The notes beneath the pieces were generated by a model. The model was given only the letters and a program-made list of their open reading frames with translations, ran no database searches and had not been told where the DNA came from. From positions 23,560,001 through 23,624,000 of the forward strand of contig OX597823.1 of the NCBI GenBank assembly GCA_951406725.2: a stretch of 64,000 nucleotides of DNA, written 5' to 3'. Both the position numbers and the translations under genes were made by a program. Each line of letters begins with the position of its first letter. Position 1 is the stretch's first letter. Shown here in pieces: positions 496 through 43,332 of this stretch. The stretch comes from Octopus vulgaris (lineage: Eukaryota).

Positions 496-689
496 TCAAC
501 AATCTTCACACACAACTAAGAGCAGAACAACGATGGCCTGCAGTTGAAGATCTGTTATTAGAAAATCTTGATTAGTCTCCCTTCCAACAATGTTGCAAAT
601 GTAGTATATGGGATTTAACTCTGACAAGTTTGGTGTTACATGTTGGTAAAGATTGTCAGACATTCATTCTTGAATTATGTGGGCTTTGT

Positions 690-1225: not shown

Positions 1226-1239
1226 ATGACAAAAAAGAT

Positions 1240-3033: not shown

Positions 3034-3249
3034 CACTTTTGCATGCTCGAACATGCACCTCCTTGCAGTGAGATATTCAACTCCATGGCATAACAAAAGC
3101 CATGTGTCTGAACCATTGGGCAGTCATGATTAATGAATTAGACAAAGTTTAAAAAGAAGCCGGTGTTTGAATTAGTTTACAATAGTATGTATGTATGTCT
3201 TTGCTTTCACTTTTTAATTGAGAGTAAATTCTGACCAACTACTGACTTT

Positions 3250-3520
3250 GTAGTAAGGTTGTGAAGGAAAGTATCTTGATTTAACCATCATTCTTTAAAT
3301 CTTAAAGAAGACTTGCAGATTTTTACAGTCCCAGATATCATGATCAGTTGTAGTATATGAATTAAAAACTTGCATTCTCTCCCTAAGATTCTAAGGTCAG
3401 CTGTTCTTTGCTCCAGATGGGTTGGTATGTATTCTGTTGCTCCATTAATAATGGGTATAAAGCTGAAAGTATATCTTGGGTACTGGATTTGCAAACTCCT
3501 TCTCAATGACCCACTGATGT
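3250..3520 (-). mobile_element. 3' remnant of RLE-type LINE
   Basis: LQIQYPRYTFSFIPIINGATEYIP resembles the RLE C-terminal 'PIIIGA.G' motif. Confidence 0.45.
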
Positions 3521-3783
3521 ATTTTTATAACAACATTCATGTCTAGTGGGTATGCATGCTCCCTGGATACAAATGAATAATATCCGTGAGAGACAGAAAT
3601 GAAATATCAAAATTAAAAATTTTCAGACATGATATGCTCAATTTAATGTTGATATTTCAGCCTTTGGTTGGCATGTACTTATGTACATAAATGTGTGATT
3701 ACGTGCACATATATCTGAATATGAACAAATGTGTCTGTGTGCATTTGTACATATGTGTGTGTATGTGTAGATTTTCTTTGCAG

Positions 3784-3871
3784 AGTAAATACTGACGACA
3801 TCAAAAGTGAAGTGGAAAACTTTTCAAATTCTTCTGTTACATCATTTGTGATGTAACTATATATGTAAAAG
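3784..3871 (+). other. Candidate upstream (leader/signal-peptide-like) exon, apparently defective as assembled
   Basis: ttttctttgcAG acceptor and aag|GTaaa donor; GTG-KWKTFQILLL in one frame and IICDVTIYVK-G (phase 1) in another; needs a frameshift and has no ATG. Confidence 0.3.
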
Positions 3872-4916
3872 GTAAAATATTTTTCTACTTGGGGTGAGAG
3901 GTATGTATATATGTATCTTTTAATAAATACATGTTTTTATGTATTACTATTTGTTTCATGTGTTGAGAACATGCCAAACAGTATTTTATAACAAGTCTGG
4001 TGTCCTAGCACAATTATCAGATGCTGCCCACATGACTCAACAAGCAAAAAATGAGACAAGAGAGGAAGTGAGAAAAGGTGAGAAGGAAGTATATATAAAA
4101 GCTGTAAGACAAAAACGAAATCAGAAAGAAGTAAAAAGGGGAATTAGAATTATTTCACTTAGACCATAAATTAAAAGGCTGAAAAAATAGTAGCTTAGAG
4201 CCTATGGTACAGTTATTCAATTTGGTGAGGGAAGCACTTTCCAATTTGTCAATAAGAACTTAGCCATATACTTAGAACCACTGAAAATTTCAGATCTAGA
4301 GTTCAGCTGTGAGAGTTCTTAGATCTGAAAAAAGGATCTGAGTTCTTTCAACTATGCTTACACTCTTTTGAGCTGTTAATATAAGCTGTGAAATTTTTGA
4401 CTATATTCTCACTTTATCATATGTGGTGTGTCATTTGATTTCAAACCTCATACATGGCTAGCCAACTTAGTAGCTTTACTTTTGTCCCTTGTTGGAAGAA
4501 AGACATGAGATTAGCATAGCAATTTTTGAATTCTCCTTCACATAGTCTGATATAGTTCTTCTTATTGGTTATGTTATTATCTGGTGTTGTTGAAACTTCT
4601 GCCTCATATATGATAGATTTAATCATGCATTGCTGGTCAAGTGGACAGGTTCCTGGGTCTCAACAGCTAAAACTGGGAGTGGGCTTTTGGTGTTGGTCTT
4701 GTGTAATGAAACTCTTCATATTGGAGCAGCAGCTATATGATAATTTCACTGAGTGCCTGTTAGATATTTTCTTGTACCTGTGATTTTCTGGAAAATGTTT
4801 GTCTTGGAGAGACAGGAATCTTTTACCTATGTTAGTTTTTACATTAAGAGAAACAGGAGTGGCAAACCAAATTTTCTCAGGTCTATTATATTAGGTTTAC
4901 TATTATTATTCTGATT

Positions 4917-5141
4917 AAGGCGGTGAGCTGGCAGAATTGTTAGCACAGTGGGCAAAATTCTTAGTGGTGTTTTGTCTGCCAGCACATTCTGAATTCAAAT
5001 TCTGCCAAGGTCAACTTTGCCTTTCATCCTTTTACGGTCGTTAAATTAAGTACTAATTGAGCACTAGGATCGATGTAATTGACTTAACTCCTCTCCCCAA
5101 AATTTCAGGCATTGTGCCTATAGTAGAAAGGATTATTATTA
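4917..5141 (+). mobile_element. CORE-type SINE (other copies ~23900-24060, 27460-27595, 35075-35285 minus, 38085-38270, 45745-45960 minus, 57355-57560)
   Basis: tRNA-like head, ttgcctttcatcctt..taaattaagtac core, (ATT)n tail. Confidence 0.75.
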
Positions 5142-5654
5142 TTCTGATTAATATTAGAGGGATTATATATTAATTTATCCATAAAGCCACTATTGGCTAG
5201 GGCATTGTTGTTGTAGGGTACTGCCTTCTGAAAAATTTCTTTAAAGAAAGAGAGGTTAGAAACTCTGTTACTAATGTAGGTTGTCAGGTTTTTAAATACT
5301 ACTGGAGGATGACAAGATTCTTTGTGTATATAGAAAAGTTTTTCATTTGGCTAATGGGGAGGTTTATCAGGGGAATAATTCAGGTCTAGGAAAACAGCTA
5401 AAAAATCAACTTTACACAAATTAATAGCAGATGTGATTTAAGGCCTAGTTGTTTCCTAAATTTATCAAGGATGTAACCATCACAGCCATGGGAAATACCC
5501 AAACTGGGTATTAAACAGATTGAGATCTAAGTACCCTTATCATGACGTTGGTCTATATCAAGACAACAGTTCTGTTAGTGTGTGTGTGTATGTGTGTGTG
5601 TTAATATTTGTGTGTATGTGAAATTTTCTCTCTTCTGATTATTGTTCACTACCT

Positions 5655-6020
5655 TTTTCTTGTTTCAGTCATTAAACTGTGATCATGCTGGGGCACTGTC
5701 TTGAATTTTTAGTCAAATAAATCAACCCCAGTACTTCTTTTTAAACCTGGTACTTATTCTGTTAGTCGCTTTTGCCAAACCACTTAGTTATGGTGATGTA
5801 AACAGACCAATACCAGTTGACAAGTAGTGGTAGGACACACATACACACACACACATATATATATGATAGGCTTTTTCAGTTTCCATCAACTAAATCCAAT
5901 CACAATGTTTTGTTCAGCTGAGACGTATTGTAGAAGACACTTGCCAAAGGTGCCATGCGGTGGGACTGAACCTGGAACCATGTGGCTGAGTAGCAAACTT
6001 CTTACCATACAGCCATGCGG
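5655..6020 (-). mobile_element. tRNA-derived SINE (related piece ~37210-37365)
   Basis: Minus strand gcatggctgtatggtaagaag..ggttcagtcccac..ggcaagtgtcttctac..aataagtacca. Confidence 0.7.
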
Positions 6021-7476
6021 AATCAAATTTTACAAAGCCAACCAGTTCAATATTTTATATGAGCAATTTATTATGAAAAAGCAATCCATCCATAAAATTA
6101 TTTTTCAGTGTGCGACACCCTCTCAGATTTAATACAAATTCAGTTATGCCATAAGGTATATTCAAAACTTTGCCAGAATGTTGTAGATAATTCAATTTTA
6201 CATTGCCTTTCTGATGGTGTGCCTTTGTTTAGGATTAAATGGCCATAACAATACTTGGTGCATTGACCATCTGTTGGGCAGCACAAAGTGCCCCATTAGA
6301 AGAAAGATGTATAAATGGATTACATGAAGCTTAAATTTTGAATTCAAATGAATCTCAATATACAGTTCTATATTTAAGAGATGAAGAATTATGTACATTA
6401 TTTACATTCGACGGCTTCAGCTGATATACCCTCCAGCCTTGGGTATTTTTCGATGTTATTATTTTTATTATTGTTATTGTTCAGGTATACTGCTTGGTAT
6501 CGAACTTGGAATCTTAAAGTTAGCAGCCTGCGCTCTTAACCACCACGCCATATGCCCATGGGCAATTATGGAGTGAATTTTAGGGCTTATAAATCTAATA
6601 TTTTTCTATCCTTCCTTAATGCCGATTCCCATATGCTGCTCATATCTGCACTCAGTCTGCTTAGGAGGTTATTGTGTCCTAGCATATGTGCTGCTTCTTT
6701 TAGTTTCCATATTTTCCACTGGTGTTCTCTATCTATTATTTTAATTTCATCCCACAGGGGGAGGTGATCTCCATTTTTCCATACATCAACTTCAATTCCA
6801 CCATCCATACAGTGTAAAGAGATGGATTGCTCAGTACCTAAAGCATCGTGCAAAGAATATAAGTAGCGATCGTAATACACACCACAAAGAAATGATCAAG
6901 CTCAATAATGATCTGTTAAGCAACAACTACCCCAAAAGTATACTATCCACTTCAATTATGAAGAAGAGAGAGAATGAGGCCAAGAAACTGTCCACAGTCT
7001 GTCTACTCTATGTAAAAGGCCTCTCTGAAAAGATACAAAAGATATGCGGCCCATATGACATCAAGACAGTATTCAAGAATAATACAACACTTCACAAATA
7101 TCTCCTTCGAGTAAAACCACCAATAGAAGAGAATGTGACTAAAGACTACGTGTACTCCATCCCATGCAGCTGTGGTAGGTTATACAAAGACGAAACATGC
7201 CACCCCCTCAAAATAATGGTAGACGAACATCGCAAAGCTATGGCATGAGATATTGATAAATCAGGTATAGCTGATCATGTATAGAAAAATGAAGACCATC
7301 TTCCCCTGTGGGATGAAGTTAAAATAATAGAAAGAGAACACCACTGGAAAATAGGAAAACTAAAAGAAGCAGCACATATGCTAGGACACAATAACCTCCT
7401 AAGCAGACCTAGTGGGAATCAGTATTAAGGAAGGATAGAAAAATATTAGATTTATAAGCCCTAGAATTCATTCCAT

Positions 7477-7551
7477 GGGCATATGGCGTAGTGGTTAAGA
7501 GCGTGGGCTACTAACCCCAAGATTCTGAGTTCAATTCCAAGTAGTAACCTG
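7477..7551 (+). other. tRNA-derived segment (A and B boxes) within the Penelope repeat; inverted copy at ~6478-6558
   Basis: tggcgtagtggttaa (A box), gagttcaattcc (B box); inverted copy has a CT-GCT-AA anticodon-like loop; acceptor stem does not pair. Confidence 0.7.
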
Positions 7552-7644
7552 AACAATAATAATAATAATGATAATAATAATAATAATAATAATAACATTG
7601 AAAAATACCTGAGGAATGAGAGCCCAGGTTCGAAATTTCCTGAA

Positions 7645-7690
7645 GACACCTGAAGAAGGCTGGAGGGTGTATCAGCCGAAATGTTGTGTT
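7645..7690 (+). ncRNA. Minimal type-I hammerhead ribozyme motif in the Penelope terminal repeat
   Basis: Stem I GACAC/GTGTT, core CTGAAGA, stem II GGCTGG/TCAGCC, then GAAA-TGTT. Confidence 0.65.
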
Positions 7691-7909
7691 AACAGCAAAC
7701 AAGATGAGGACAAATATCCATTGAATGTAAATAATGAATCTCAAGATGTACTACAGCTCCATGAATGCAGACTAAGTTGCCATGTTGTGGATCAATTCTG
7801 TGTTTATAATATATTGTCCATTTAAAACAAATTATGCACAGGCGCTATTTCATAGTTAATGTGTATTTGAGTATAAAATATATTTCTTGTTTTCTTTCTC
7901 CTTTTCTAG

Positions 7910-8143
7910 CCAAAGACGAATTTTTGACATTTAAAAGAACTGGCATACCAGGGTATGATACATTTGGGCGGCTGAAAAATGTGAGCTTAAAGGAGTGTGA
8001 TCATGCTTGTCATCAAATTCCAGGATGTAACTCTTATGAGTATAATGAAAGAGAAATGTCCTGTGATCCAAGTAATGTGACCCACTTGACTCATAATCTT
8101 CAACCCAGCAAATGGGGCTGGGACATTTACATCACTAACCCAG
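7910..8143 (+). CDS. Exon A1: PAN/apple domain, type A
   Basis: cttttctAG|c ... ccag|GTcag; [32 protein letters not shown] = C-x3-C-x5-C..C PAN core. Confidence 0.9.
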
Positions 8144-8607
8144 GTCAGTAGAGCGTTTACATTTCATTTAATGTGTCATTATGCACATGTATTTGTGTTT
8201 GTGTGTATTTACTTACACATATACATATATGTATCTGTGTGTGTGTTAAATGATGATAATGATGATATCTATATGCACAAAGTTTTCATATATTCATTGA
8301 AATTGCAAGTTTCATAATCCACTGATAAGGTACAGGGATGTAAAAACACCAACACTGGTTGTCAAATGGTGGTACAAATGCAGATACTAAGACACATACA
8401 TATAGACATATATATATTTATATATATACACATATATATACATACATATCATCATCATCATCATCATCATCATCATTTAACGTCCGCTTTCCATGCTAGC
8501 ATGGGTTGGACGGTTCAACTGGGGTCTGGCAAGCCCAAGGCTGCACCAGGCCAGTCAGATCTGGCAGTGTTTCTACAGCTGGATGCCCTTCCTAATGCCA
8601 ACCACTC

Positions 8608-8660
<53 letters not shown>

Positions 8661-11600
8661 GTGTATATATGTATATATACATATGTATATATACATATGT
8701 ATATGTATACATACATGCATACATACATACATACATACATACATACATACATACATACATACATACATACATACATACATACATACAGGGTGCGATGGGT
8801 AAATTGTCACCATTTTATATTTAATTTCATGTATGTGCATTGTATAGTATAGTAGGATCAACTGGGCATTGTCTGTGAAAAAAACAGCACCATGGCACAA
8901 TTCACTCTGCCAGAAATTGGGAAATGACATGCTGTACTGCTTGGCATTTGCACCAGAAGCTCCGATGCAAACATTTTGGAGTGTTTAGGTGTCAATCTGA
9001 GGACAGAGCAGAGAGGATTCGGAAAGAGTTGGATGAGTCAAGGTGATTATGAAGGTATGGCAGCTCAGAAAACTCCCTCTGATTGTTCTGAGAAAAGAAA
9101 AGAACTCTTAAATTTGTTGGTGAGATCCAGGCTATGATTGATGATGGTCAATCTCCAAGTCAATCAGGTCCATCACCAGGGACATGGCAGTGTCTGAATT
9201 TCTTATTAAGCAGCTAGTACATGAAGAGATTCGATATTCTTCACATAAGATGAGAAAGGGCTTATCTTAATCCCAGGCCATCAAGGACAAGACAGAAAAC
9301 CACACTATGAAGCTTTTGAACAAACTCAAGCATCGCCTCCAACTGAACATGCTTTGATTTTTCTCAGATGAGAAAATTTCTGCCAGGATCAGATGATGAA
9401 CACACAGAACAGCCATTGGCTTGCTCTGTCCCAAAACATGTACTGAGAGTGATAAAAACCAAACATCCAATCAACATCCTGGTGTTTGCAGTAATTGCTA
9501 GTGATGGCAACATTATGCCTCCATTCATCTTCCCACATGTCCTCAGACTCATCATGGTGCCAACATTAAGTACCAGGAGGAGGTACTGCTGCCCTGGGTC
9601 AAGAGAGTGGCTGCTAGAAGACCCTTTGTCTGGCAAGAGGAATATGCACCATGCCACACAAGCAGCAGAAACCAGTTATGGCTGTCAGACAATTTCTGTG
9701 ATCACATAACCCCTAGCATCTGACCACCTAACTTCCCTGATACAATCCCTTTGATTATCATGTGAGGTGCACAGTTGAGTGAGAAACCAACAAAACTGCT
9801 TATAACACCAAAGATGAACTGAAAGCAAGGATTATGGCAACTTAAGGAAATTGTCCAGGAGAGTTGCAGGATATTTGGAAGTTGTCTGGAGGCCATGATT
9901 GAAGCCAATGGTGATTTTATTGAAAAGAATTTTCACCTTAGTATTTCAAGATATTTTTATGTAATTTTGGTAAATATATCTCTTAAAATGAGATATCAGA
10001 TTTATTTTCATTTTTGTGTAATTTTGACAACAATTTATTCACCACACCCTGTATATATATCATCAACATCATCATCGTTTTTAACGTCCGTTTTCCATGT
10101 TAGCATGGGTTGGATGGTTCAATTGGGGTCTGGGAAGCCAGGAGGCTGCACCAGGCTCCAATCTGATCTGGCAGTGTTTCTACAGCTGAATGCTCTTCCT
10201 AATGCCAACTATCCGAGAGTGTAGTGGGTGCTTTTTACATATCACCAGCACAGGGGTCAGAAGAGGCTGTCATCGACCATGTTTGGATAGTGCTTTTACA
10301 TGCCACCAGTATGGGAGCCAGAGGGGGCTGACATCATATATATACATACATGCACAAGGTGGTATCAAAAGGTTCCCAGATTAGATATGGTTAATAAAAA
10401 ATAACCTATCTACCTACCTTTTAACATTCTCCTTTGAAATAGTTTCCCTGTGCAGCAATACACTAGTCCCAGTATTCCTGCCACTTTCGGAATCTGGCTT
10501 GGAAGTTGTTTCGGTAAGTGAGCCAAGGACCTTTTTGATTCACTCTGGATCTTGACAAGCAATGTTAAAATGGCAACCTTTGAGCTGCATTTTCATCTTG
10601 CAGAAGAGATGGAAGTCGGCAGAAGCTAAATCTGGCAAATAGGGCAAGTGTGGAATCAATACCCCGTTGCTTTTGACAAGAAACTCTGTTTCTAATTCTA
10701 CTATCATGTCATCCCATAAGTTTTGTCTGAATTTTGAATAAAGAAAACAAGTGATCAAATGCTATATTGAAATTTAATCATTAGTGTACTTTCCTTGATT
10801 ATCTATGACTTCCTTCCATCTATTTACAAGCTTTTTAATCCCATCAATGTAAAATCTTTTGGTTTCAAAGCAAAGAACTCTGAAATGTCAGTATCGACCT
10901 CCTCCTGGCTTGTGAAAGTTATGTCCCCCAAATGATTCTGTAAACTATGAAACAAATGGTAGTCTGAAGGAGCAAGGTTGGGAGAATAAGGTGGATGAGG
11001 AATTTTTTCCCAACCAAGCTCTTTGATCTTTTGTGATGTGATCTTTGCAGTGTGGGGTTGCACATTGTGCTGATGAAACATCACTCCCTTGCAGTTCACT
11101 AGAGCGGGTTTTTTTTTCTTCAAAGCTTGGTTCAAATGCTCTAATTGTTGACAGTAGACTTGAGCATTGATTGTTGCACTAGATGGGAACAATTCAAAGT
11201 GAATTACTCCTTTGCAATCCCACCAGATAGAGAGAAGAACCTTTTCCCAATGAAGTTCCCTTCTTGGTTGTGGTTGAGCTTTTTCCCTTTTACCAAGCCA
11301 CTGTTTGTGATGTTTAACATTTCAATAGAAGATCCATTTTTTGTCACCAATCACAAGTTTATCCAAAAAGGGTGAAATGAGTTCACGAGAATGGAGAGAA
11401 GAGCAAATGTCAGCTTGGGATTTGCAGTTGCTTTCAAACAATTCATGAGGCACACATTTTCCAAGTTTAGGAACCTTTCCAAGTTGTTGAAGATGATGAT
11501 GAACAGTTGTATGGTTTGAACTAAGCTTTATTGCCAGTTCTTCAACTGATAATGCAGAATTTTATTCAAGTAATGCCTAAAGGAGCTTATCATCAAACTC

Positions 11601-14600
11601 AACTGGATGTCCTGTTCGATCTTCATCTTCTAGGCTGAAATATCCACTTCTGAATTTTGTAAACAATCTTCTGCAAGTTCATTCATTCTTTCCCATAAAC
11701 TGTGTCGTTTTGAGTTGCTTCGGCTGCAGAGTTTCCTTTTTCGTACTCATAAAACATTATGAGCCTCAAATGCCCTTTGGATACTTCCATGTTAGAAAGG
11801 GTTTTAATCAAAGAAAATTTAATTCTATTATTATAATAATATTTAATTAGCTTAGATGTACACAAATGCATAAAAATAATTTTTAATTCCATTAGACATT
11901 TTAGAATACTATTAAATTTCATTCAATTTTAAAATAAGGTAAAATCGGACAGAACTTACGGGATGACCAGATATATATTTATATTACATTCATATATATA
12001 TATATGTACACATGCACATATATATATGCACATACACACACATATGTACAAATAATTGCATGCATGCATACATACACACGCACGCATGCACACACACATG
12101 CATACATACATGTAAGTATGCATGTACTTATATTTGTGTGAAAATGTCTTCCATTTGCTTCACTCAATATCATCTATTCTAAATTAGTCATTTTTACTTC
12201 ATTGTCTTCCACCTCATGACATACAAGCAATCTTGGTATCAAGTTCTCTTTTCAATTTCAGTTACACTGACCATTGACTGTGGACCGCCAAAAGATGTTG
12301 CTGGTGCATCAAAGTTTTACAAAAACACAGCCTATAAATCTGAAGTGACCTATAGCTGTCGAGATGGACCAAGCAAAAAGTCAGTATGTGGAAAGAACAG
12401 TAAATGGACTCCAGTTGCGCTTATTTGTAATGGTAATGTAGATAACTTCTTTATTATTGTTTCTTTCTTGGTGATCTCTATATTATAATTCTGAAATGTG
12501 AAAAGTTTGTTTGTTTGTCTGGTTTTGGCATTGAGAACGGGATTGACTAGATCTCGTCGGATTGACTCCAAAGTTTACAGGGACATGTAAAATGAGGTGA
12601 GGATGCGAGTGGGCTACATTAGAAATTCCTGTCTTAAAAGGTGTGGTTACTAGGGCAAAAACGCACACTTTGACAAGTCTTCTCTCATTCTGTTATCTGT
12701 CTGTCTTCCGTTCATCTCTCTTTCCTCCCTTCGTTTCACTTTCTCTCTATAATGTCGTTTGACAGTGTCTACTATCTTTCCCTCCACCGCCTTCACTCTT
12801 TCTCTCACATCCTCTCTCTCTCTCTCTCTACGTCTGTCTGCATTCATAGAGAGAATTATTATCGCTACCACAACCACACAATCATGAGAACAAATATTAT
12901 GAATCAGACTAGCTTAAGGTGACCCACTCTACGCACATTCTCCCTCTTTGTTTCTCTCTCCTTTCTCTCTTACTTTCCCACTCTCTTACCCTCCCTTTGT
13001 CTAGGTCTTTCCCTCACTTTCTCTTACTCTCTATCTTTCTCTATCTATCTCTCTCCCATTTATAAACAACAAAAGATCTTGAGTAAGTTGAGAAAGAAAA
13101 TATTTTGAAAGATCAATCATAAATATCAGGCAGTGACAACAGAAAGGTCTGCTTCAAGGCAGACAGCAAAACACTAACATTTAAAAGGGACAGACGAACT
13201 TGCGAGCTGAATAAAAATAAAAAATATTGGAAACCAAAGTTTGAAGGGATAGAACCTGAGGATAGTAGAGTCACCAACTGGCTTTCCGTTTTGGTGTAAA
13301 ATGCCAGCTATAGCTACTTCTGATGCATCTGATTCTATTGAGAAAGGAAGGATTTCATCAATCACTGTTAAAGTAGCGTTTGCTAAACCATCTCGTAAAG
13401 TTTTTAAACTTGACAAGGCTAGTTCACTCAAAAGAAAATATTTAGTATCAACCAACGGTTTTATCTTGTCAGAGAATTTGGGAATCCATTTAGAATAATA
13501 CGCAAATAGACCAACAATTCGACTCAATGCTTTGTGGGTACTAGGAATAGGTAGTTCTAGTAAGGGTTTTACCCGGTCAGGGTTAGGTTTCAAGTTACCA
13601 TTTTGAATTTCATAGCCAAGCAATCGAATCCGTGTAGTGCTGTAGATGCATTTGGTATCATTAAAAGTTAAATTACAGTCCTTAGCAACTTGAAGAAAAT
13701 GTTTTAACTTTCGATCATGTTCTTCCTTCGATTTACCGCACACAGTTATGTTGTCGATATATGCAAAATTAGCTCTACAATTATGGCTTTCGATTATATT
13801 ATCGATCACTCTCTGGAAACAGGGCACTGCATTTGTAAGTCCAAAAGCAATACATTTGCTTTGATACAATTTTCCCTGCGCTTTGAAAGCCGTGTAAGGT
13901 TGATCTTCGACTGGAATCTCACCTTGATGATATGCACTTTTGAGATCTAGTGTGCTAAAATAATTTAATTGAGCTATTTTTGTGACCATATCATGCATAT
14001 TTGGCAGTGGATATCCATCTAATTGCGTAAACCTATTTATAGTCTCACTATAATCAATACACAGTCTCTTGCGATGATTTTCTCCTGATATTACCAATAC
14101 CTGGGCTCGCCAGGGAGAAACACTGGGTTCAATTAGCCCTTCTGCCAGATCTTGGCTTATAGTATCAGCAATAAATTTTTCATTATTGGCGGACTGTCTT
14201 CTCGATTTCGTAACTATGGGTTTACAGTCAGAGTTTAAATTTTCAAACAACCTCAGTGTAATGTCATGTTAGAGCTCTCAAATGTAACAGGTGCTTATTA
14301 CCGTCAAAGGTAATTTGTACATGTTGATGCTGTTTTAAGAAATTTTGTCCTAAAATTATATCTACAAACAAATTATCAAGTACCACCAGGTTTACTTTCT
14401 CATAATTTCTTCCATGAAGTTCAATTGAACTCATACTATAACCGTTGCTTTGGGAATGATTTCCATTGACAGCCATGTTAATTTCATTCTTTTCAGACTT
14501 CACCACCAATTTGTTTTTCTTTGCAAAGTCTTTGCTAATATGATTTATAGTAGAGCTGGTATCAATCAAAGCAAATGCTTTCACACCATCGACTTTTATT

Positions 14601-15499
14601 GTATAATTAACTTTAGTAGCAGCTCCAACTTGACATAAAGCCATGGCGAAGTTGCCATCATCAAGAGCTGCTGATGTCTTACCAAAATTTTTAGTTACTT
14701 GACTGGCATTCTTTAGCAAAATGACCAAAATATTCACATTTGTAACACTTGCTCCACCTAGCAGGACACTTAAACCTCGGATGAAAATCATTAGGTCTGC
14801 AAAAAGTGCAGGATTTTTGAGTTCGTTTTGTCACTGAACAACCTCTATTTCCACCAGGAATTGAGATTTTGTCTTCTTCACGTGGAATAAACGTTGACAA
14901 ACAGCTTCCCTGGCTGTTTATAGCAGACTGACTGCTATTATACACTTTGAAATTCCTTTGAGCAACTTCCAGCGGACGGGCTTGGTTAAATATTGCTTCT
15001 AAAGTTATCGCCGCATCTTGAATATTTTCTAAAAGTCTAAGGCGAGTTGAAGATGACATTAATCCCGAGATAAATGCGTCAAGAACAGCTTCATTTTTGT
15101 GAGTCTCAGCGTCCACAGCTCTGTACCCGCAATCTTTAGCTAGTCGTTTCAATTTCTGTAAATAGTCGTCAACTGATTGACCTGGTTCTTGTTTGCATGT
15201 CATTAAAAGGTATCTCGCAAAAATAATGTTCAATGGTTTCACGTACATTCTCTCCAGAGTTTCAATTGCTTCTGAGTAATTCTCACATTCACATATGAGT
15301 TCGTAAGAGTCTTTATCTATGTGTGCTATTAAACACTTAAGTTTGCTTTCATCCATGATAGGCGGTTCAGCAGGAAATGATACTAAAAAATTTTTTTAAG
15401 TTCTGAACCAATATTTCCATTCTTTTGAAGCTTGATTTGAACTTCAATCAGTGATACACACACACACACACATGCATGCACACACACACACACATGCAT

Positions 15500-15550
<51 letters not shown>

Positions 15551-18500
15551 CATACATACATGTAAGTATGCATGTACTTATATTTGTGTGAAAATGTCTT
15601 CCATTTGCTTCACTCAATATCATCTATTCTAAATTAGTCATTTTTACTTCATTGTCTTCCACTTCATGACATGCAAGCAATCTTGGTATCAAGTTCTCTT
15701 TTCAATTTCAGGCACAATGACCATTGACTGTGGACCGCCAAAAGATGTTGCTGGTGCATCAAAGGTTTACAATACCACAGCCTATAAATCTGAAGTGACC
15801 TATAGCTGTCCAAGTGGAGTAAACCAAAAGTCAGTATGTGGAAAGAATAATAAATGGACTCCAGTTGTGCCTATTTGTAAAGGTAATGCAGATAACTTCT
15901 TTATTATTGTTTCTTTCTTGGTAATTTTGTTACGTTTTTCTGTTGTCTTTGTGAGAGAAATTCTGTACAATATAAAGTTTGAATCCTTCCTTACTAAAAC
16001 TCAGCAACCCTCTGAAACATATCTCTGATGCTCTTGTTTTCTTCCAGTCCACCACCATTAATTATGATAATGCTACTAATAATAATGATGACTGATTTTT
16101 GCTAAAATCTAACAGTTTTTGATGGGGGGCTGCTTAATCAATATTGTCAATACTACTCTTTAGTTGGTACTTTGCTATTCACCCATGCAAGTATGGAAAA
16201 AAAAGTTGGATTTGAACTGAGAACATGAAGAAGTTGGATACATAGTGTAAACTATTTTTTATAAAGCTCTAATTAGTATACCTGTATATATTAAAAACAA
16301 AGATGATAATGATGTTGATAATCATTTTGAATGTAAAAGGGTCTCTATCTGAGACCAATTGAAGAACCCCACCATTGAAGATTACCATGAAGTCTATGGA
16401 CAAGCATCCTCTGCAATTTTCATTCCTTGTCCTACAGTTTCATGCACTGTTGTTCCCATCTACTCCTATCATTTTTGCCACATTCACCTCTCTTTCAATA
16501 ATTTCCATTGAGGACAGTTCCATCCTCACCTTCCTTACAAGTGAAACTTTAAAACTGCAGACGAAGGATTGACCAAAGTGAAATGCTACTGTCATCCAAT
16601 CTTTAACCTCTTCCTCAATGCAACTTCTTTTGCAACAATAACCAAACAGAGGAAAATTTCCTTCTCTGCCAAATTAAATGAAGGTGTGAGGTAATCACCA
16701 TGATGGACTTGGCTTGCACAAATATGCATTCTGCACATAACAGCAACTCTTTGACATAACTCCTGTGTTTGGTTGAAGAATGGGCCAAAATCTTTCTTGC
16801 ACATTCCCACATTCTTCCTCACCAGTGTCTCCAGACTCTGAACAATAGTACTAAGAATTCTCCTGCTATTATGGTAGATGTCTGCCAAAAGGCTGCCAAA
16901 CAAATCTGGCATGAACTCAGAGAATTCATAGGGTAGACCATCCAAACCAGACAATTTCTGACCTGTTTCTAACCTGTGCAATCACTCATCACTCCTGTAT
17001 TTCAGTGGCTGTCATTTGTCTTTTGCAGAACCTTGCATCTGTTGTAGAATCACAGCAGGCTGTCCAGGTACAAACTAAAGTCCATCTGTTCAGAACCAAG
17101 TAGCATGTGCTACTGTTTGTTTTGGTTTGGTTTGGTTTCTATGGCCTTTCCTAGCACCAATCCCACTGCAGAGTGTACTGGGTGCTATTTATGTGGCACA
17201 ATCACCAATGATTTTTACATGGCTCCTGCACCAATGCTTTTTACATTGTACCTCAGTTTTAGGATCTCCATTCTGTTGTGATGGGCAGGTCTTCTCAAGT
17301 GCAGCAATGTGCCACATATCTCAGTCCTCTGTCATCCCCTTCGTAAGGTTCACATAGAAGTTAATGCATGCTCTGTAGTGAATTAACTATCCTCTGGTCA
17401 GTCAAAACTTATGAAATATGGCCAACAACAGACGATATAAAACTAAATTCTAATGAGAAAGAATGATGAGCTTTAGAGCAAGATGTTTTTATAGTTTTTC
17501 AAATAACAGTATTAAGATTTAAAATTTTACTAATATAGTGAAGCAGAGTAATATTATAGATAACGTCCTTGATTTTTGCTTCATAGTTAATACCGTTTAC
17601 TTCTTAACATAAAATGAATGAGTAATTTTGTTTTAATTGAAATATTTTTATAACAAATAAGAGAATAGAAAATGAAAATGAGAGAGAACAAAATAAACTG
17701 TAAACATATAGCTGAACATTACAACATTGGTGACATGAATATGCTCCATATTCATTGTGAAGCTCTTAGATTTCTAAATGATCCTCTGAACAGCTACCAC
17801 ATGAGGAATGTTATGCTCTCTAAATTACAGCCTTATCCTGAAGAACTGAAGGGATTTTTAATAAAAATAATGTAGAATTGATCTTTTTCCATAAAACTTT
17901 TAGGAACTGTCTTTTCCTATGCTTCATTTGGGATGAAAATAAATACACCTGAAGGACAGAGATCTAATTGTTTCAAAGTTCAGGGACAAACTTATACAAT
18001 TTCTACTCTTCACCCTGAAAGCCAAAGCCCACAGTAGAGTCAATTATCTATATTGGATCATCCCATAAATAATGTGTTGTTTTTTTAATTGCATGAACTA
18101 AAAACCAGAAGGGAGTGGAATAAACTATCTGCATCACTTTGCTTTAAAAGCAGGTAGTAATTTTACCTTTTTCTTATTCTTAGTGTAAACTTTGAAGAGT
18201 GCAGTTCTATTTTAAAAGTTATTTTTTCAAAGCTATAATTCCTTTCGAGTGCTGAGCCTCACAGAGGCAAAGTGGCTCAGTTCTTTTTGAGTGTTGGGCC
18301 TCATGGAAGCAGTGACTGAGACCTTTGGCATTATGTCGTGCTTGAGAAGAAAACCCATCAAGCCAAGCAAAATCGCAGTCATTGTAGATACTGGTTTCAT
18401 GCAAATTGTTACCTATGCTGGTGGCATGTAAAAGCACCTATTACACTTTCAGAGTGGTTGGCATTTGGAAGGACATCCAGCCATAGAAAACCATGCCAAA

Positions 18501-21500
18501 TCAGACTACAGTCTGGTGCAGCCTTCCAGTGTATCAATCTGGTCAAGCCTTCCAACCATGCCAGTCTGGACAAGGGACATTAAATGATGATGAGGATGAT
18601 GATAATGGAAGTAACAAAGGAGTATATTTGGCATATTTTGCTTTATGAATTCAATAAAGGCAACTATGCAATGGAAAGTGTGAGGAATATTAATGCAGTT
18701 TATGGGGATCTGAAATGGACAATAAATGTAAACCAGTGTCAACGGTGGTTCCAGAAATTCTGAGCTAGAAACTACAACCTAGAAAATACCCCTTGTCCTG
18801 AAAGATCTGTAGAGCTTGACAAGGAATACTGCAAATCCTGGTGGAAGAAAATCCCATCATAACTGTTGAGGAACTAGCAGAGAAGCTTTGATTTGGTCAT
18901 TCAACCATTTATCAACACTTGCGTGCCATCGGAAAAGTCAGCAAATTGGATCAATGGCCTCCTCACAAACTTCCTGAGTTTAATCACATGCAAAGAGTGA
19001 ATGTGTGCTCTTCTTTGCTGTCATGTCTCATGAATGGACCTTTTTTGGACCAAATAGTGACTGGTTACAAGAAATGATCTCTCTATAAAAATTTCAAGCA
19101 CTGAAGACAGTGGCTAGGGAAAAGAGAAACACTGGCACCCCATGCTAAAGAAAGTCTTCACTCACATAAAATGTTTTTTATCTGTTTGGTGGGCTATGTA
19201 AGGTTTAGTCCACTTTGAACTTATAAACCCAAACCAAACGATAACAAAGTAGATCTACTGCAAGCAGCTTGAGCAGCTTATGTCAACACTAGAAAAAAGA
19301 TTACCATCTTCAGTTTGAAGATGAAAGGTGTTCTTCCATCAGGATAATGTTTGGCCACATACAGCGAGGATGACCTTCCAAAGGATAGAGCAGTTTGAAT
19401 GAGAAACGATGCTCCACACACCATATTTGCAGGACATTGCCTCATCTGATTATCTTTTATTCCACAGTCTTCAAAATCATTTGGATGGAAAAAATATGAA
19501 TTCTGTAGACGAGGTCAGAATAGTACTGGAGGAGTATTTTTCATCATGGACAAGTGAATTTTGGAAGTAGGTCCTTACAAGTCTACCAGATAGATAGAAG
19601 AGCGTTGTAGAAAATGAAGGAGAGTATATTTTAGATTAAAAAAGAACTTTATCTTAATTTTGAAAAATAAAAGAGGCATAAAAATAGCCAAACTATTTAT
19701 GGGATGACCCAATAATTGAAACAAAGGAAGCTCCAGATGGAAGCTCCTCAAAATTCTCAATGTTTAGCTAACATAATGAATATCATTCAAAATGTTATTC
19801 ATTGCTATAATTCTTATGTTTAGTTACATAAAAAGATGCAGTCAGTGTAATTAGAAGAAGCACATCATTCCAAAACAATGTTCCTATTTGTAAAGTGGAA
19901 CTTCATTTCAGGTGAGGTGTAGACATTAAGTAGCATTCTTTTCCAAGTAGTGAAATTACAGCTGTATTTATTGGTGAAAATGAAGCACCTCTTGAGAATA
20001 GGGCTGTTTTAATTAATCTCAGAATTGTTCCTTTCCAAAGAAATTCTTATTTGTCATGTCATCTAGATCCAATGTGCTATCCACGTCTGTTTTCTCATAG
20101 TGAATTTGAGTGGCACAAAGAAATCCAGCACCACGAAGCTTATAGAACACCTGTTCATTCTATGGTCACCATGCAACAAATTTATAATTTTGTGATATGT
20201 CCTGCATTATGATGACATAACTTCGTCTGTGTGACTGGCCCAAACAGCATACCTAACTGACTGGCACTACTTACTGTGTCTGTCCGCTATTTATTATTAC
20301 TGGACCAGCCCACTTCTCAGCTGGGAGTGTCTGCCACAACACCTCCCTCCTTTGAGAATTTTCCTTTTCGTATAATACAACATTACATTCATTTAATTTT
20401 TTCCTTTCTTTTTTTTTCTAACCTGAATTATATTTCTCTTCTTATTTAGATTCTTACTTGTTCCACATAGAATTACATATTTTTTTTCAACACCACATTA
20501 TTTTTTTTTTCATTTCTTTTTCTTCTAACCAATTATTTTTCTCTTCATATTTAGATTTTTTCTTGTTCCAGACAGAATTATATATTTTTTTCAAAATTCT
20601 GCAGGTAGTACAGTCTTCATTGTTTACTGGTAGCACAAATTAACATATAGTGACCTGACTTAAATCTTTTTTTGCTCCACCCAGAACCATATATTTTCCA
20701 AAATGCCGCAGGTAGTACCAGTCTACATTGTTTACCGGAAGTGCTATCAACATATAACGACCTGACATAAATCCGTCAAACAGATTTATATTATTTTTCT
20801 CTTCAGTTCTGTGTTTGAGTTCCAGTTTTATCAGACATTTTTTCTTCAGAATCTTTTTTAATATATTTTTCACCGTGTTCATACATTGTGTGTTGTTCAG
20901 TTCTGTGTTTGAGTTCCAGTTTTATCAGACATTTTTTCTTCAGAATCTTTTTTAATATATTTTTCACTGTGTTCATACATTGTGTGTTGTTCAGTTCTGT
21001 GTTAGAGTTCCAATTTTATCAGACATTTTTTCTTCAGAATTTTTTTTTTATATTTTCCCTGTGTGAAGTTCAATTCCGTGCTAGAGCTCCAGTTTTATCT
21101 GACATTTTCTCTTCAGAATCTTTTTTTTTTATATACTTTTCACTGTGTGTATATTACTTTTCACCGTGTGAAGTTCAAATCCCACCTTGGGATTTTTAAC
21201 ATTTTTCTGCAGCGTGAGCTCTATGTCCTACATTATGACAACGTAACTTCATCATCTGTGAGACTGGCTTGAAAAGTGTACCTTGTTGACTGACCCTACT
21301 TACTGAGCCTGTCCACTATTTATTAGTAGTGGACCAGCCCTCTTCTCACCTGGGGGCGTCTGCCACAACATTTTGTTTGGCTGTTAGACATGGTTTTAGT
21401 GTTATCCATAGAGCAGAATAACATGTAAAGATTGAGGGATGCCATTCACAATTTATTAGGAACAATCATTCTCGATTTCATGTTGAAGAGTACAGAGGGC

Positions 21501-23612
21501 TAAAGGGCCATCTCAATGCAGAAGAAGAAAGCAGTTTTGAGCTGGGAGTTCCAGTTATACTTCTTTCTTCATTTCAAGGAAGTTCACAGAGCATGCATCA
21601 CTCTTAAAATTGCAATGGCAATAGTAGCAAGATACTGTAAAGCAGATCTTTTTTTAACTGGCACATGTAGTCTGAAAATCCCAGAAATCTTCAAATACCT
21701 TGAGTCAAACTAACACCCAGTGAATCAAATTTACTTTTCACATTACAAAGAACTCAGTTTCCTTTTACATTAGATTATTCAATGACAATGAAGCACAAGG
21801 TCAGACATTCAATAAGATAGGGATTTGCCTACCCTAACCACTATTTAGTCATGGACAGTTGTATGTTGTATTTTTTAGGATCAGGAAACTAAATGATATT
21901 GTTGTTAAAGTAGTGAATACCAACAGGCAAGGAAAACAAAGAGGGAAAAGTATCACTAAAATCATTGTATATAAGGAAGTATTAAATTAATGGTATTCTG
22001 ATAATGATAATTAATGGATTCAAGATTTAAATGATACAATGATGTAATAATTATACAACAGTGAAATTATTGCAATGTAATCAATTATTGATTTTTATTG
22101 ATATATTTCTTTTGCAACTCATATTCACTATATAAATTGCATGTCTATGCTTATTTAAATGTAAATAAAATAATGTGTATTTTAAAATATAATCATTATT
22201 CCTTATCTAAGAAACCATGGATGAGAATTACTTCCAAAAATAATGTTTGAACACAAGTTATCTACTGTCTTAGTTTTAATGACTGTAAAGTTATCATGGG
22301 TCCAGTTACAACATACTGAGATTTGTAAATGTGGTATCTAGATAGTCAAACCATAACAGAATAATATTATGGATAATGGTTTTAATTTCATTTTGGAGTA
22401 ATCATTGTTTAAAGCATTTACTCTATACATAACTCTCTCAAAAGATTTTCAATAATTTCGATCATATTGATGAAAATTGAAAAACTGTGGACCAGTATTT
22501 ATTCATACAGTTTGCTGCTACAATGGCATCTTTAGTATTACCTATGTGAACATTACAAAATCTCAAAATCACAAGAAATACTATTTCAAAAGAGCTTATA
22601 TATTTCCTATTCTTCAAAAGCTTGCAAAATACCTGCAGATTTTTTCAAATTACTATATTAATATTTGTTAAAATCCTACAAAAAACAGTACCAAAATAAT
22701 ATAATCTCTTTAATTTTGTTACATACTTAAGGGCGTTTACTTCTTGATGTTAAGCAAGAGAATAAACTATAACAATTCGCTATGTAGAAGACTTAACAAA
22801 TGTATAACAAAGACTATAACCTTCAGAGATGTTTTTGTTTCTTAAGACTGTATTTTCAATACTACAACATGGATCCTTACATGATCTCAAAAAGGAAATG
22901 TTTTTTAAAAATATACAATTTCAAAAGAAACATTAATTTTTATGGTTCAGTATAAACTTCCAACTAGATAAAAAATTTTGTATTTATTATGGAATTCCTA
23001 TGGGTACTGCTAGTTATAATTATTTTTGTTGTTAAGAGTTTAGGATAGAGAAAATCATAAAAGCATCAGACAAAATTATCATCATCATTGTTTAGCATCT
23101 GCTTTCCATGCAGGCATGGGTTGGATGGTTTGACAGGAGCCAACCGATTAGAAGACTACCCCAGGTTGCTGATTCTGTTTTGGCAGTGTCTTTACATTTG
23201 GATGCCCTTCCTAACACCAACCACTCTGCCGAGCAGACTGAGTGCTTTTTATGTGGTACCAGCACAGGCATGGTCAGTTTTGGCATGGTTTTTGCAGCTG
23301 GATGCCCTTCCAAATGCCAACCACTTTACAGTGTGGACTAGATGCTTTTCATGTGACATCAGCACCAGCCAGGTCACCAAGTAACTTGCAAGACAAGGAA
23401 TTTTGAGAGGAGAGAAAGTATTGGAGGAGGGGGATCTTGTGTCAGATAATGAAAGGTTAGAGTGTGATGGAGAACAGAGATGGGTGTCTTGCTATAGAGG
23501 GGCATTGGAAAAAGAGACCTTGCATCAGATGATAAAAGGTTAGAGTGTGACAGATAAACAGAGAGGCAGAACCAGGTGCCTTGCCATAGAGAAAGTACAG
23601 GGTTACCCAGCT

Positions 23613-23647
<35 letters not shown>

Positions 23648-26600
23648 AAGAAAAGAGAGGAAACAGGGAGAGGAAGAAAGGGAAAGAGAGAGGGAGAGGG
23701 AGAGGGAGAGGTAACAAGAAAGAGGACAGAAACAGATGTGTTGATATAAAGGAGATACTTGGTCACCTAGTCAGTGGGAAAGCAAGAGGAGAGAGAGAGT
23801 GTGTGTGTGTGTGTGTGTGATCAAGAATGAGGGCAGAAACAGGTGTGCTTCTGTAGAGGATATACATGGCTACCCAGCCAGAGGAAAGAACAAGGGATAT
23901 TTGTTCAGGCTTTTTAATTCATGAGTTCAAATTCTGCTGATGTTAACTTTGCCTCTCTGGAGTCAATAAATTAAAATTCCAGTGAAGTGCAGGGATCAAT
24001 TTAATTGATAAACTCCTACCTCAGAATTTTGACTAAATTTCTATGTTAGAAATGATTATTATTGATGTTGTTATTATTTTTCATTGGTCTTAATTTCAAT
24101 CTAATTCTAGATACTCGCATCAAATTTGTAAAAATAAAAAACGCAATGCTGAATGTAGCTGGGAAAACATTGGTGGATAAAAAAAAAGTAACAGTTGATG
24201 CCTGTGCAGAACACTGTTTGGCTCATACAAATTGCTTGTCATTTGAAATAACTAAAAAAAGTGGTCTCTGTTACTTATCAAAGCAAACTGCAGCTTCCTC
24301 CACGAAAATACAAACAGACAAAAGCAGGGATTATTACCAACGAGTGAAATGTAATTATTATTTGCATTTTATTACTGAAGTCTATTTTCCTCTTTTTCTC
24401 AAAATTTGTGACTACATATGTATATTTTATAATATATAAAGACATTGATGTAAACACATTCCCAAAATAATCAACTTAAGGAATTGTAAATACTGTAAAT
24501 TCTCATACAGCATTTATTCACATTGAATATTTTATGCTTGTTTTCAATAATTTCCTTCTTTTTGGTAAGAAAACTTCCTTTTCTCTTATGCTCCATCAGA
24601 AATTAAGATAATTCTATTCTTGTTTTCCTTAAACCTGAGTAGTATTAGTAATAGTGGCAGCAACAGCAGCAGGAGTAGTAGTTGTAAAAGCAATTTTCTC
24701 TTCATTTGTCCATTTTGGTATGTATTAGATACTGCTATTACAACACAGTATTTTAACACTAGTTACTATCCTTCATAATTTGATATACAAAAATAACAGA
24801 AAAAGTAATCGTAACCTATGAAGTTGTGTTTTGCTTATATTTTGTCATGTTTGCTATGGCTGGATACTCTTCCTATCATAATATGAAGAGAGAATCCTCT
24901 CAACTTAAATAAGTTTCTATTTAGTATAGTTCTATGGATTTAAAAACAACACATCCATTCACTTTGGTCTCAAAGATTTTGTTTTTTCTTGTTGAAATCC
25001 TTCCTTCAAAAAAAAATGTTGGATATCAAGGGAAATTCACTAAGTTTAGCGATCTCAGTAGTACAAAGTGGTGTCAAAAACTTCCTGTACTAGTTCTGTA
25101 GTACATCACCAAATAGCAGCACACAGTTACATGCATAGTAAGAGCTAGCAGTGACCATTATGAAGCAGTGTGCAAAGGGACATTGTTGTGTTTAATTTGC
25201 AAGTTGTGAAATTTGTATTTGTGTGATCATGCATATGCTGTAGTCTGTGATTGTTGTCATGGAGAGGAAGTTGGAACAAAGAGCCAACATCAAATTTAGT
25301 GTTAAACTTGGGAAGTCTGCTACAGAAACGTTGAGCATGCTCTGGCAAGCTTTCAGTGATAAGTCAGTGGGCTGTATGCAATGTTTTGAGTGGCACAAGC
25401 ACTTCAAAAGTTGAAGAACATTCCTGGAAGAGGAGGAGAAATCTGGAAGATCTACGACAAGTGTCACCCTCAGAAATGTAGAGAAATTCATCATCTTGTG
25501 CATGAAGAATGTCAGAGAACAACCAACGACATTGCTGTTGTATGGCTCTGTGCAGGCAATCCAAACGTTCATGAAGAATTGGATTCTTCACGATGATAGT
25601 GCACCATATCATTGAGTTTTTCTCACTTGTGAGTTTCTTGCCTAAAACAACATGGTGTGGTTTCCACACCCACTCTATTTGCCAGATTTAGCACCTGCAC
25701 TCTTCCATATCTTCTCCAAGATGAAAATGCAGCTCAGAGGTCACTGTTTTAACATTGTTGTTGAGATTCTGAGTGAATTGCAGAAGGCCCTTCTTATTTT
25801 GTTCTTTTCCTTTTTCCTACTATTAATTCCACTCATCTCTGACTGCCATTAACAACGCTACTTCACTTTGGATTAGATAGCTCAGCAAGTTCCCATGTTC
25901 AGTATGCATAGTCTTCCATTATAATAATAATAAATATTATTATTTTTCAGTAGTCTTATTTTTGTAATGTACTTTCACTGCACTACTGAGCACAGCTGTG
26001 TGCCTTGGGTATGTGCTGTGGTTTGTTGTGGGGCTCTTATTTTTACTGTATTGAAAGTGTTTTACGTAGGATGTGTGCGATGCCCAGTAGTGCTGTTTTC
26101 TGTATGTTATATATACTTGTTAGTTTTGGTGTTTTTGTTATGTATTTGTTTGAATAAATTTTTATCATACCTAATGCACCTACTATGATAGGAATTGTTT
26201 CTGTTTTTAGACTCCACATTTGAGTTACCTCTATTTCCAGGTTTTTGTATTTTGAAATTTTCTCCATTTCTTTTAGAGAAACATTGTTGTATGTTGGTAT
26301 TGATACATCAATTAGAAAGCAAGAGAGCAGTGCATGCCATCAAAGTGACACTGGGGTAAAATATACAAAGCACCATATCCCCATCATAAATCCCCATCCG
26401 ATAAGGGTACACTAAGCACAAGCATCACTATCATATGTGCATGACATGATGATCTCTGTGCCATCTACTGGATCTATCTGCAATGCATGCAAAGTGACAA
26501 AACTGTTCTGCATACACATGTCCAGTTCTCAAGCCTTGCTGATGTGTGGATTAATTTCAAACACCTACTTTCACTTGTAAGTTGGATTTGGTTATCAGCT

Positions 26601-41784: not shown

Positions 41785-41818
<34 letters not shown>

Positions 41819-43297: not shown

Positions 43298-43332
<35 letters not shown>

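Follow-up and report, generated by a model that had tools for sequence, protein, structure and literature searches.

The window analysed here, 64,000 nucleotides of the Octopus vulgaris genome, falls inside a predicted gene of 1.64 Mb (Table 1). Within this gene, 133 Sushi and 210 PAN exons form an array of 343 repeat exons, all on the forward strand, in phase 1-1, free of stop codons and bounded by AG and GT, with no N gaps across the locus. Only two decayed pseudo-exons were found, and an HMM scan of 46,029 open reading frames returned no further array exons. The exons are arranged in 105 modules of interleaved types (73 ABS, 27 ABSS, 3 AB and 2 ABSSS, where A and B are the PAN types and S is Sushi), with higher-order blocks of 13-exon units present in about 4 and 6 copies. 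The gene model comprises 349 exons, with one signal-peptide-like start, one GON-domain end and a largest intron of 19 kb. From start to stop it holds PAN, Sushi and GON exons only, without a transmembrane or ZP anchor. Its spliced reading frame (73 kb of coding sequence) runs for 24,352 residues to the stop and predicts a sequon-rich protein of 2.75 MDa with a pI of 8.9, 14% lysine and about 1,390 cysteines.

Table 1. Features of the window and of the gene around it. Positions are those of the window unless a contig is named.
Feature	Position	Strand	Remarks
Giant predicted gene	G000:C10:23,362,495 to about 25,003,050	+	window is C10:23,560,001-23,624,000 (1..64000), wholly inside
PAN exon type B (B41)	7910..8143	+	upstream neighbour of S1
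TA/CA-rich microsatellite at S1	about 11970-12097		counterpart of the (CA)n at S2
S1 homologous tract	12089..12474	+	exon with its upstream flank and the next 42 nt
Sushi/CCP exon S1 (array index S42)	12262..12432	+	171 nt, phase 1-1, AG/GT; PF00084 23.8 bits
High-copy DNA element, two pieces	12474..13283	.	end presumably Helitron-like; natural end exactly where S1/S2 homology stops
Decayed retroelement fragment	13275..15453	-	gag-protease-RT-like from translation; broken frames; both ends truncated; joined to (CA)n
(CA)n microsatellite	15456..15548	.	5' border of the S2 tract
S2 homologous tract	15539..15924	+	family-type downstream intron retained for at least 700 nt
Sushi/CCP exon S2 (array index S43)	15712..15882	+	171 nt, phase 1-1, AG/GT; PF00084 27.2 bits
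PAN exon type A (A44)	24111..24350	+
PAN exon type B (B45)	27893..28126	+
Sushi exon S46	34291..34461	+
PAN exon type A (A47)	38329..38568	+
PAN exon type B (B48)	41487..41720	+
Sushi exon S49	45196..45366	+
Sushi exon S50	51552..51722	+
PAN exon type A (A51)	57618..57857	+

A one-module paralogue of 465 residues sits 70 kb upstream of the giant gene and is 80-96% identical to GON-Abd-1 of Abdopus aculeatus (UniRef R4G2C1) and to its Octopus orthologues (P0005, P0155-P0157). The giant gene is built from the same exon kit, namely a signal exon, a 30-nt exon, PAN-A, PAN-B, Sushi and four C-terminal GON exons, and differs in having 105 modules instead of one. GON-Abd-1 reportedly originates from a venom-gland survey. 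A published proteome of the O. vulgaris posterior salivary gland (PMC7693380 Table S1) includes 18 unique peptides of the small paralogue; for the giant gene, the parts of the PMC7693380 and PMC10138644 supplements that were searched hold no peptide or identifier match, and their other parts may hold some. A literature search (titles and abstracts, plus locus and protein identifiers) returned no description of the giant locus, and word look-ups in PMC12607849, PMC7911839 and PMC7656900 gave nothing relevant.

We conclude from the exon structure that the 343 exons are likely parts of a single gene, whose predicted product is likely secreted. The public annotations of O. vulgaris, O. sinensis and O. 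bimaculoides cut the locus into fragments (those of the last two being collinear pieces of it) and thereby imply several genes, whose first and last exons, if short and non-homologous, would escape the homology searches used. We regard this as quite improbable. All 343 repeat exons carry both acceptor and donor, the annotated fragments terminate in read-through intron sequence, and no intron exceeds 19 kb. Across 1.86 Mb the signal exon, exon 2 and the GON exons have two homologues each, one set per paralogue, and the homology search found none of them within the array. Alternatively, the array could be a module-choice cassette in which splicing joins exon 2 to a single module or a few of the 105 and these to GON, so that many 465-residue variants of the venom-gland paralogue result. 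In its favour, that paralogue consists of exactly one module, any exon skip keeps the frame because all exons are symmetric, and site models of both the Sushi and the PAN-A exons contain a class of sites with omega of about 2-2.7. Against this, the exon types are interleaved, unlike the grouped ones of Dscam, the splice sites have a uniform, canonical form, only 2 of 345 exons are dead, and no conserved selector is visible on average since the flanks evolve neutrally. Module choice is therefore unlikely, if less so than several hidden genes.

Titin has about 363 exons, and Drosophila Dumpy about 23,000 residues. Titin, Dumpy and apolipoprotein(a) are, like the octopus gene, giant and made of symmetric domain-per-exon repeats expanded in higher-order blocks; the octopus gene differs in its PAN-PAN-Sushi repeat, its GON end and the lack of a transmembrane or ZP anchor in the model. 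Dscam exon classes are grouped in clusters. In Dscam1-type arrays, too, constant ends enclose symmetric paralogous exons, more than 100 in each class, but the same-class clustering of a mutually exclusive array is absent here and no selector conservation was seen. ADAMTS9, ADAMTS20 and GON-1 contain a zinc metalloprotease and TSP1 domains besides GON, and the exon content of the model places it outside this group; for P0005, Pfam hits at E <= 0.01 are only PAN and GON, plus a weak COLFI overlap. Titin reaches about 40,000 residues, as given in an abstract. The cephalopod toxins SE-cephalotoxin and DECA-CTX combine EGF, Sushi, TSP1 and LDL-A domains according to the parts consulted of bioRxiv 10.64898/2026.04.09.716377, and have Sushi alone in common with the giant protein. 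Database searches recovered close relatives of the giant in octopods only, and a homologue search with PAN exon B45 as query gave no match.

Two neighbouring Sushi exons of the window, S1 and S2, had drawn attention in the first-pass annotation. Both score above the curated PF00084 cut-off of 20.7 bits, the four cysteines and the tryptophan of the domain are present as invariant columns, and the AF2 model has the CCP beta fold (pLDDT 88.9). The best Foldseek matches are CCP modules (MASP-2, C1r and CD55; probability 0.97-1.0, with E >= 0.08). The two exons are offset by 3450 nt. Our recount agrees with the earlier one: over 171 nt they differ at 18 positions, 16 replacement and 2 silent, which changes 14 of 57 residues and keeps all four cysteines and the tryptophan. 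The 56 whole codons give 15 replacement and 1 silent difference, and the split first codon adds one of each (scored by hand); each silent difference has a replacement no more than 2 nt away. The flanks differ at 2 of 171 nt upstream (12213 and 12223) and 1 of 40 nt downstream (12439), or 3 in 211 as also counted before, with a fourth difference at 12473. The contrast between exon and flanks is significant (Fisher p = 1.4e-4). S1 and S2 are sisters in the Sushi tree and share private codons. The states at residues 36-38 recur rarely or not at all among the 132 other Sushi exons, and the changes there strike the family-conserved E36 and L38.

It is barely credible that S1 and S2 are two alleles placed in tandem by the assembly, a worry raised with the original observation. 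Their homology extends over only about 400 nt, and both versions occur in three of four DNA runs under three organism labels (A, B and C). In these runs they appear as a 139-nt contig pair, one member identical to S1 and the other differing from it at 13 positions, as many as separate S2 from S1 over the same stretch.

The first-pass annotation read the contrast as an exon diverging nine times faster than its intron, after the model of snake-venom PLA2 genes. In those genes exon evolution is accelerated, and S1/S2 resemble them in exon-over-intron divergence, in the excess of replacements and in having a venom-gland protein as paralogue. Family-wide, however, the octopus array shows no such acceleration: across 98 higher-order-repeat pairs, exons diverge by 8.3% and introns by 11.1-12.0% at all distances, with 11.1% at silent sites and 7.6% at replacement sites. 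Because array introns diverge at the silent-site rate, the S1/S2 flanks are not under constraint. Among 397 young paralogue pairs (which are non-independent), the exon exceeds the flank in 58 and does so at p < 0.001 in 3, as against 103 with the reverse; S1/S2 rank third in this contrast. The pairs B224/B250 and S238/S251 share the pattern. A ninefold faster exon is thus not established, and the flanks have probably been slowed by homogenisation.

The transposons between the copies bear on their age. The DNA element begins at 12474, with a terminus that most of 11 other copies share. Private divergence, an upper bound on insertion age, is 3.8% for the retroelement and 3.5% and 6.5% for the two DNA-element pieces, or about 3.5% decay between S1 and S2, and the private differences are spread evenly over codon positions (24/31/28), as in neutral-looking decay. 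Since these transposons have decayed and one starts exactly where the homology ends, S1 and S2 are probably older than their flanks suggest. If the insertions came after the duplication, as this dating assumes, neutral divergence between S1 and S2 should be 7% or more; templated insertion of S1 beside a pre-existing element end is the alternative. At 7.6%, four or fewer flank differences in 212 nt have a probability of 2.5e-4, and the 18 of 171 in the exon are compatible (p = 0.10).

A second line of evidence comes from sequencing runs. Runs X3 and X5 contain a contig that has the letters of the S1 exon and, at 12213 and 12223, those of S2, together with a new variant at 12236; because Logan contigs drop bubbles and may be chimeric, this phasing rests on differences less than 31 nt apart. 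At the two positions the S2 letters are those less often seen in the family (T in 34 and G in 15 of 132). The array has many conversion-like mosaics, for example A155/A171 with 3% divergence in the exon and 24-35% in the flanks. Intron-limited homogenisation, offered earlier as an alternative, accordingly fits the transposon decay and the shared flank letters better than an accelerated exon does.

The other conversion proposed earlier, confined to the exon and copied from a third paralogue, happens elsewhere in the array. For S1/S2 it is very improbable and is contradicted unless the donor was lost: none was found among the 132 other Sushi exons, the nearest of which is 22-25% distant, and exact matches that span a differing site reach 20 nt at most. 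All 134 Sushi matches in the genome are confined to this region, and the private codons and sister position of S1 and S2 also speak against a third copy.

How much of the exon divergence is due to selection is less clear-cut. The flanks might be an honest clock (about 1.5%), in which case the duplication is very recent and strong positive selection has since acted, mainly on S1. Pairwise dN/dS is about 5 with a replacement-to-silent ratio of 15:1, the S1/S2 branch has an omega of 5.2 against a background of 0.72 (p = 0.016, the branch being chosen post hoc), the S1 branch has no silent change (LRT against omega = 1, p = 0.017), and the changes at residues 36-38 hit E36 and L38. Yet the pairwise test for omega > 1 falls short (p = 0.054; Fisher p = 0.09), and S1/S2 rank only second among 81 independent pairs; a one-sided 5% level is passed by 5 of these, against about 4 expected. 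The decayed elements that separate the copies, one of which stops at the homology boundary, and the derived flank letters apparently common to both copies in X3 and X5 also weigh against so young a duplication, which we consider doubtful, though far from negligible. Of the strong positive selection first proposed, what stands after comparison with more copies is that some selection for amino acid difference is plausible, as the branch and site models are elevated. In the site models preferred for the Sushi exons, omega is 1.7-2.2 at about 25% of sites; the overlap of the 13 changed codons with 12 M2a sites is 5 (p = 0.10, not significant).

Conversely, S1 and S2 could be old duplicates with flanks that conversion reached by chance and an exon that evolved at the relaxed pace usual in the array, without special selection. 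Nearest-neighbour Sushi pairs have a pooled omega of 1.0 and positional repeat pairs a pN/pS of 0.64, the latter trusted more because these pairs are not selected by distance. The exon total of 10.5% fits a neutral divergence of 7.6-13%, and the 16:2 split departs from the array-typical replacement share of 0.69 only at p = 0.051. B224/B250 and S238/S251 are again alike. However, 16 replacements exceed the array rate if the age is 7.6% (p = 0.001); at 13% they are unremarkable (p = 0.10). Since both flanks and long internal stretches of the exon are near-identical, chance conversion would also need tracts that skip just the changed codons, and we judge it unlikely, if still appreciable.

The reading we favour, with about an even chance of being right, is that S1 and S2 are sister exons in a likely single giant gene, their flanks likely homogenised by conversion while selection likely preserved the 14 amino acid differences. 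A local tandem duplication would have produced the pair before the transposons inserted. Short conversions between copies 3.45 kb apart, in tracts bounded by the microsatellite and the insertion, would then have reset the flanks to 1.4-1.9%, and conversions over the changed codons would have been selected against. A point against this reading is the small number of silent differences (1-2 in 38, towards the low side of an expected 2.9-4.9). Exon 5 of the human red and green opsins likewise exceeds its flanking introns in divergence between tandem duplicates, a peak explained in the parts consulted of PMC3924837 by conversion together with selection against conversion at the changed residues. 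The octopus duplicates differ in being exons of one gene with a tract of about 400 nt. Among the proteins retrieved there was no S1/S2 orthologue from a distant octopus.

Judging from its domain content, the product may be a basic, sequon-rich, multivalent scaffold, about a micrometre long by usual domain sizes. Its 105 PAN pairs might bind glycans or proteins in a gland secretion, with the Sushi modules perhaps acting as variable, surface-exposed linkers. Taken together, we lean towards the view that octopuses make a secreted protein of 2.75 MDa and 24,352 residues from a 349-exon gene, that this gene arose when the binding module of a venom-gland protein was multiplied roughly 105-fold, and that the modules diversify under selection against constant conversion.

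S1/S2 are a warning that an exon-faster-than-intron ratio can arise from slowed introns. With 343 intact paralogous exons and an internal neutral clock, the locus is a good natural system in which to measure conversion against selection. If transcribed as modelled, this would be a titin-scale gene encoding a secreted protein, which three octopus genome annotations have overlooked as a unit and whose exon structure links it to a salivary or venom-gland protein. Its product would rank with the largest known extracellular proteins. Questions would then arise about the production of so long an mRNA (73 kb of coding sequence), about the synthesis and secretion of a protein that holds about 1,390 cysteines, and about the role of the secretion.

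Direct comparison of the two look-alike Sushi exons S1 and S2 identifies 18 differences within the exons. The flanks differ at two positions upstream (12213 and 12223) and at one within the next 40 nt downstream (12439), with a further difference at 12473, past which homology ends. The exon is indeed more divergent than the flank (Fisher p = 1.4e-4), and the 16 replacement and 2 silent changes reported by the first-pass annotation agree with our count of 15 and 1 in the 56 whole codons, plus 1 and 1, worked out by hand, in the split first codon. S1 and S2 are real copies, because both versions occur in three of four DNA runs (labels A, B and C) over 12100-12700, as paired 139-nt contigs of which one is identical to S1 and the other differs from it at 13 positions. 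Both exceed the Sushi Pfam cut-off. The predicted S1 structure is confident (pLDDT 88.9) and most closely resembles CCP modules in fold, although at weak E-values; the changes map to strand 15-21 and to the inter-strand turn at 33-38, surfaces that may bind a partner. Two replacements at 15770-15778 (S2 codons 20-22) create an N-T-T glycosylation sequon in S2 that S1 lacks.

Features of the Sushi pair and of the surrounding locus (window positions for S1 and S2; otherwise G000:C10, contig OX597823.1)
Feature	Position	Description
Sushi exon S1	12262-12432	171 nt, AG/GT, phase 1-1
Sushi exon S2	15712-15882	171 nt, AG/GT, phase 1-1
Predicted giant gene, signal exon (second copy)	start 23,362,495	followed by second 30-nt exon
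Small one-module paralogue	23,269,851-23,294,200	orthologue of GON-Abd-1
Exons between the two GON paralogues	23,317,000-23,326,200	same strand as both; SLBB match

Strong positive selection had been proposed for this pair, for which we find pN = 0.115 and pS = 0.027 (Fisher p = 0.09). On branches picked post hoc, omega reaches 5.2, above the background of 0.72 (p = 0.016) but at p = 0.054 against 1; most changes fall on the S1 branch (p = 0.017, also picked post hoc). The pair ranks second among 81 independent young pairs, of which five pass a one-sided 5% level (about four expected) and five lie significantly below 1. For excess of exon over flank divergence it ranks third of 397 non-independent pairs; at p < 0.001, exon exceeds flank in 3 of these and the reverse holds in 103. 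S1/S2 is therefore no statistical outlier. A recent duplication under strong selection is, in our assessment, rather unlikely. Similar exon-over-flank divergence is seen in the exon pairs B224/B250 (PAN type B), S238/S251 (Sushi), A298/A316 and A230/A243 (PAN type A).

Across the array, 98 of 113 positional repeat pairs were compared (pairs of unlike type or above 16% divergence dropped). Introns diverge by 11.1-12.0% at all distances from the exon, close to silent sites (11.1%), and replacement sites by 7.6%; selection is therefore weakly purifying on average and the flanks neutral. Site models on 134 Sushi exons place about 25% of sites in a class with omega 1.7-2.2, with likelihood ratios of 137.5 (M1a-M2a) and 91 (M8a-M8), and about 262 for PAN-A (M1a-M2a). 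Null simulations with duplication (n = 9, 7 with conversion) gave -5 to 29, from imperfect fits and a simple null. By this comparison, part of the surface is likely to be under moderate diversifying selection throughout the array.

The family-type downstream intron is kept in S2; that of S1 breaks off 42 nt downstream, exactly where a high-copy element starts at a terminus common to most of 11 other copies, which lie in unrelated flanks. A second piece follows, then a doubly truncated retroelement adjoining (CA)n before S2. Private divergence is 6.5% (14/215) and 3.5% (11/312) in the two pieces of the high-copy element and 3.8% (80/2,111) in the retroelement. Private changes in the retroelement are spread evenly over codon positions (24/31/28, in three partly overlapping open stretches), as expected from decay after insertion. 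If the elements were inserted after the duplication, S1/S2 neutral sites should differ by 7% or more. At 7.6%, four or fewer flank differences in 212 nt would be too few (p = 2.5e-4) and the exon's 18/171 would be ordinary (p = 0.10). Homogenised flanks, an alternative already raised in the first-pass annotation, thus gain support, but conditionally on insertions that postdate the duplication. Elsewhere in the window, the S2-A44 intron holds a minisatellite (20802-21150; 94-nt unit, 2.7 copies), and 61923-63097 a direct repeat of 565 nt at 99% identity (61923-62486 versus 62536-63097).

In DNA runs X3 and X5, one contig carries S1 exon letters together with S2 flank letters at 12213 and 12223, the two being bridged by a new variant (12236) that leaves gaps below 31 nt. 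Since the S2 letters are minority states in the family, the derived state is likely shared by both copies and likely marks conversion, within the limits set by contig chimerism. We rejected a third exon as donor, and with it the suggested exon-limited conversion from another paralogue: the nearest Sushi exon is 22-25% away and exact tracts reach at most 20 nt. Exon-limited conversion does occur between A155/A171, A70/A109 and A290/A308, in one case across 250 kb; these exons are 2-3% apart and their upstream flanks 19-35%. For S1/S2, an older tandem duplication would have produced the copies, with flanks then homogenised and replacement differences retained, an account to which we give about an even chance; a neutral mosaic appears slightly less probable than recent duplication with strong selection. 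PMC3924837 describes the proposed pattern for opsin exon 5. The signature is of a known kind, and weaker than first stated.

The window corresponds to G000:C10:23,560,001-23,624,000, and its exons are mostly matched at 100% by public Octopus vulgaris proteins. Genome searches identified 134 Sushi, about 106 PAN-A and about 106 PAN-B matches at 23.27-24.98 Mb, all on the plus strand. In the gap-free 1.86 Mb surveyed, 346 of 348 matches are intact, stop-free exons (phase 1-1, AG/GT), the first three belonging to the small GON paralogue. The two decayed pseudo-exons, one PAN-A and one PAN-B (24,195,910 and 24,207,895), enclose an intact A-B pair; B140 (24,093,506) is a strongly diverged PAN-B exon shortened to 201 nt, with a counterpart in O. 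bimaculoides P0004. The predicted giant gene holds 343 repeat exons (133 S, 105 A, 105 B) in 73 ABS, 27 ABSS, 3 AB and 2 ABSSS modules, and a second GON exon set closes it with a stop. Higher-order repeats of thirteen exons occur in two blocks. Spliced in order, its 349 exons give a predicted 24,352 aa (2.75 MDa, pI 8.9, 1,390 Cys) over 1.64 Mb, with introns of median 4.0 kb and maximum 19 kb; repeat exons, counted with the small gene's three, carry 274 sequons and 14% Lys.

The locus probably encodes one giant secreted protein, with exon skipping possible. Signal, 30-nt and GON exons have no homologues beyond two of each end exon in the 1.86 Mb, and division into several genes seems very unlikely; splicing by module choice is improbable, if somewhat less so. 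Collinear fragments are modelled in O. bimaculoides (mostly 75-93% identical) and O. sinensis (mostly 92-100%), the longest retrieved reaching at most 4,470 aa; being predictions, they are no proof of splicing.

The small gene comprises signal exon, 30-nt exon, PAN-A, PAN-B, Sushi and four GON exons, and is 80-96% identical to the Abdopus aculeatus protein GON-Abd-1; its O. vulgaris annotation (385 aa) omits the PAN-A exon. The exons between the two GON paralogues resemble what we take to be the complex I flavoprotein gene, NADH dehydrogenase flavoprotein 1. Upstream lies a small membrane protein ORF, UPF0542 (SMIM15-like; 23,243,711-23,244,004), and a 233-codon ORF at 25,043,690-25,044,388, opening with a signal-peptide-like stretch, probably represents exon 1 of the gene that follows.

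In a set of 1.84 billion representatives, those close relatives that carry a name are octopod proteins, and assignment to ADAMTS or cephalotoxin was rejected. Our searches of open-access text found no description of 105 PAN-PAN-Sushi(0-3) modules plus GON under one signal peptide; we rate the protein, pending RNA, as a variant among giant tandem-domain proteins. PMC7693380 lists the small paralogue in the O. vulgaris posterior salivary gland proteome (18 unique peptides, 43% coverage). Judged from domains, composition and paralogue, the giant protein may serve as a long multivalent PAN scaffold in gland secretion.
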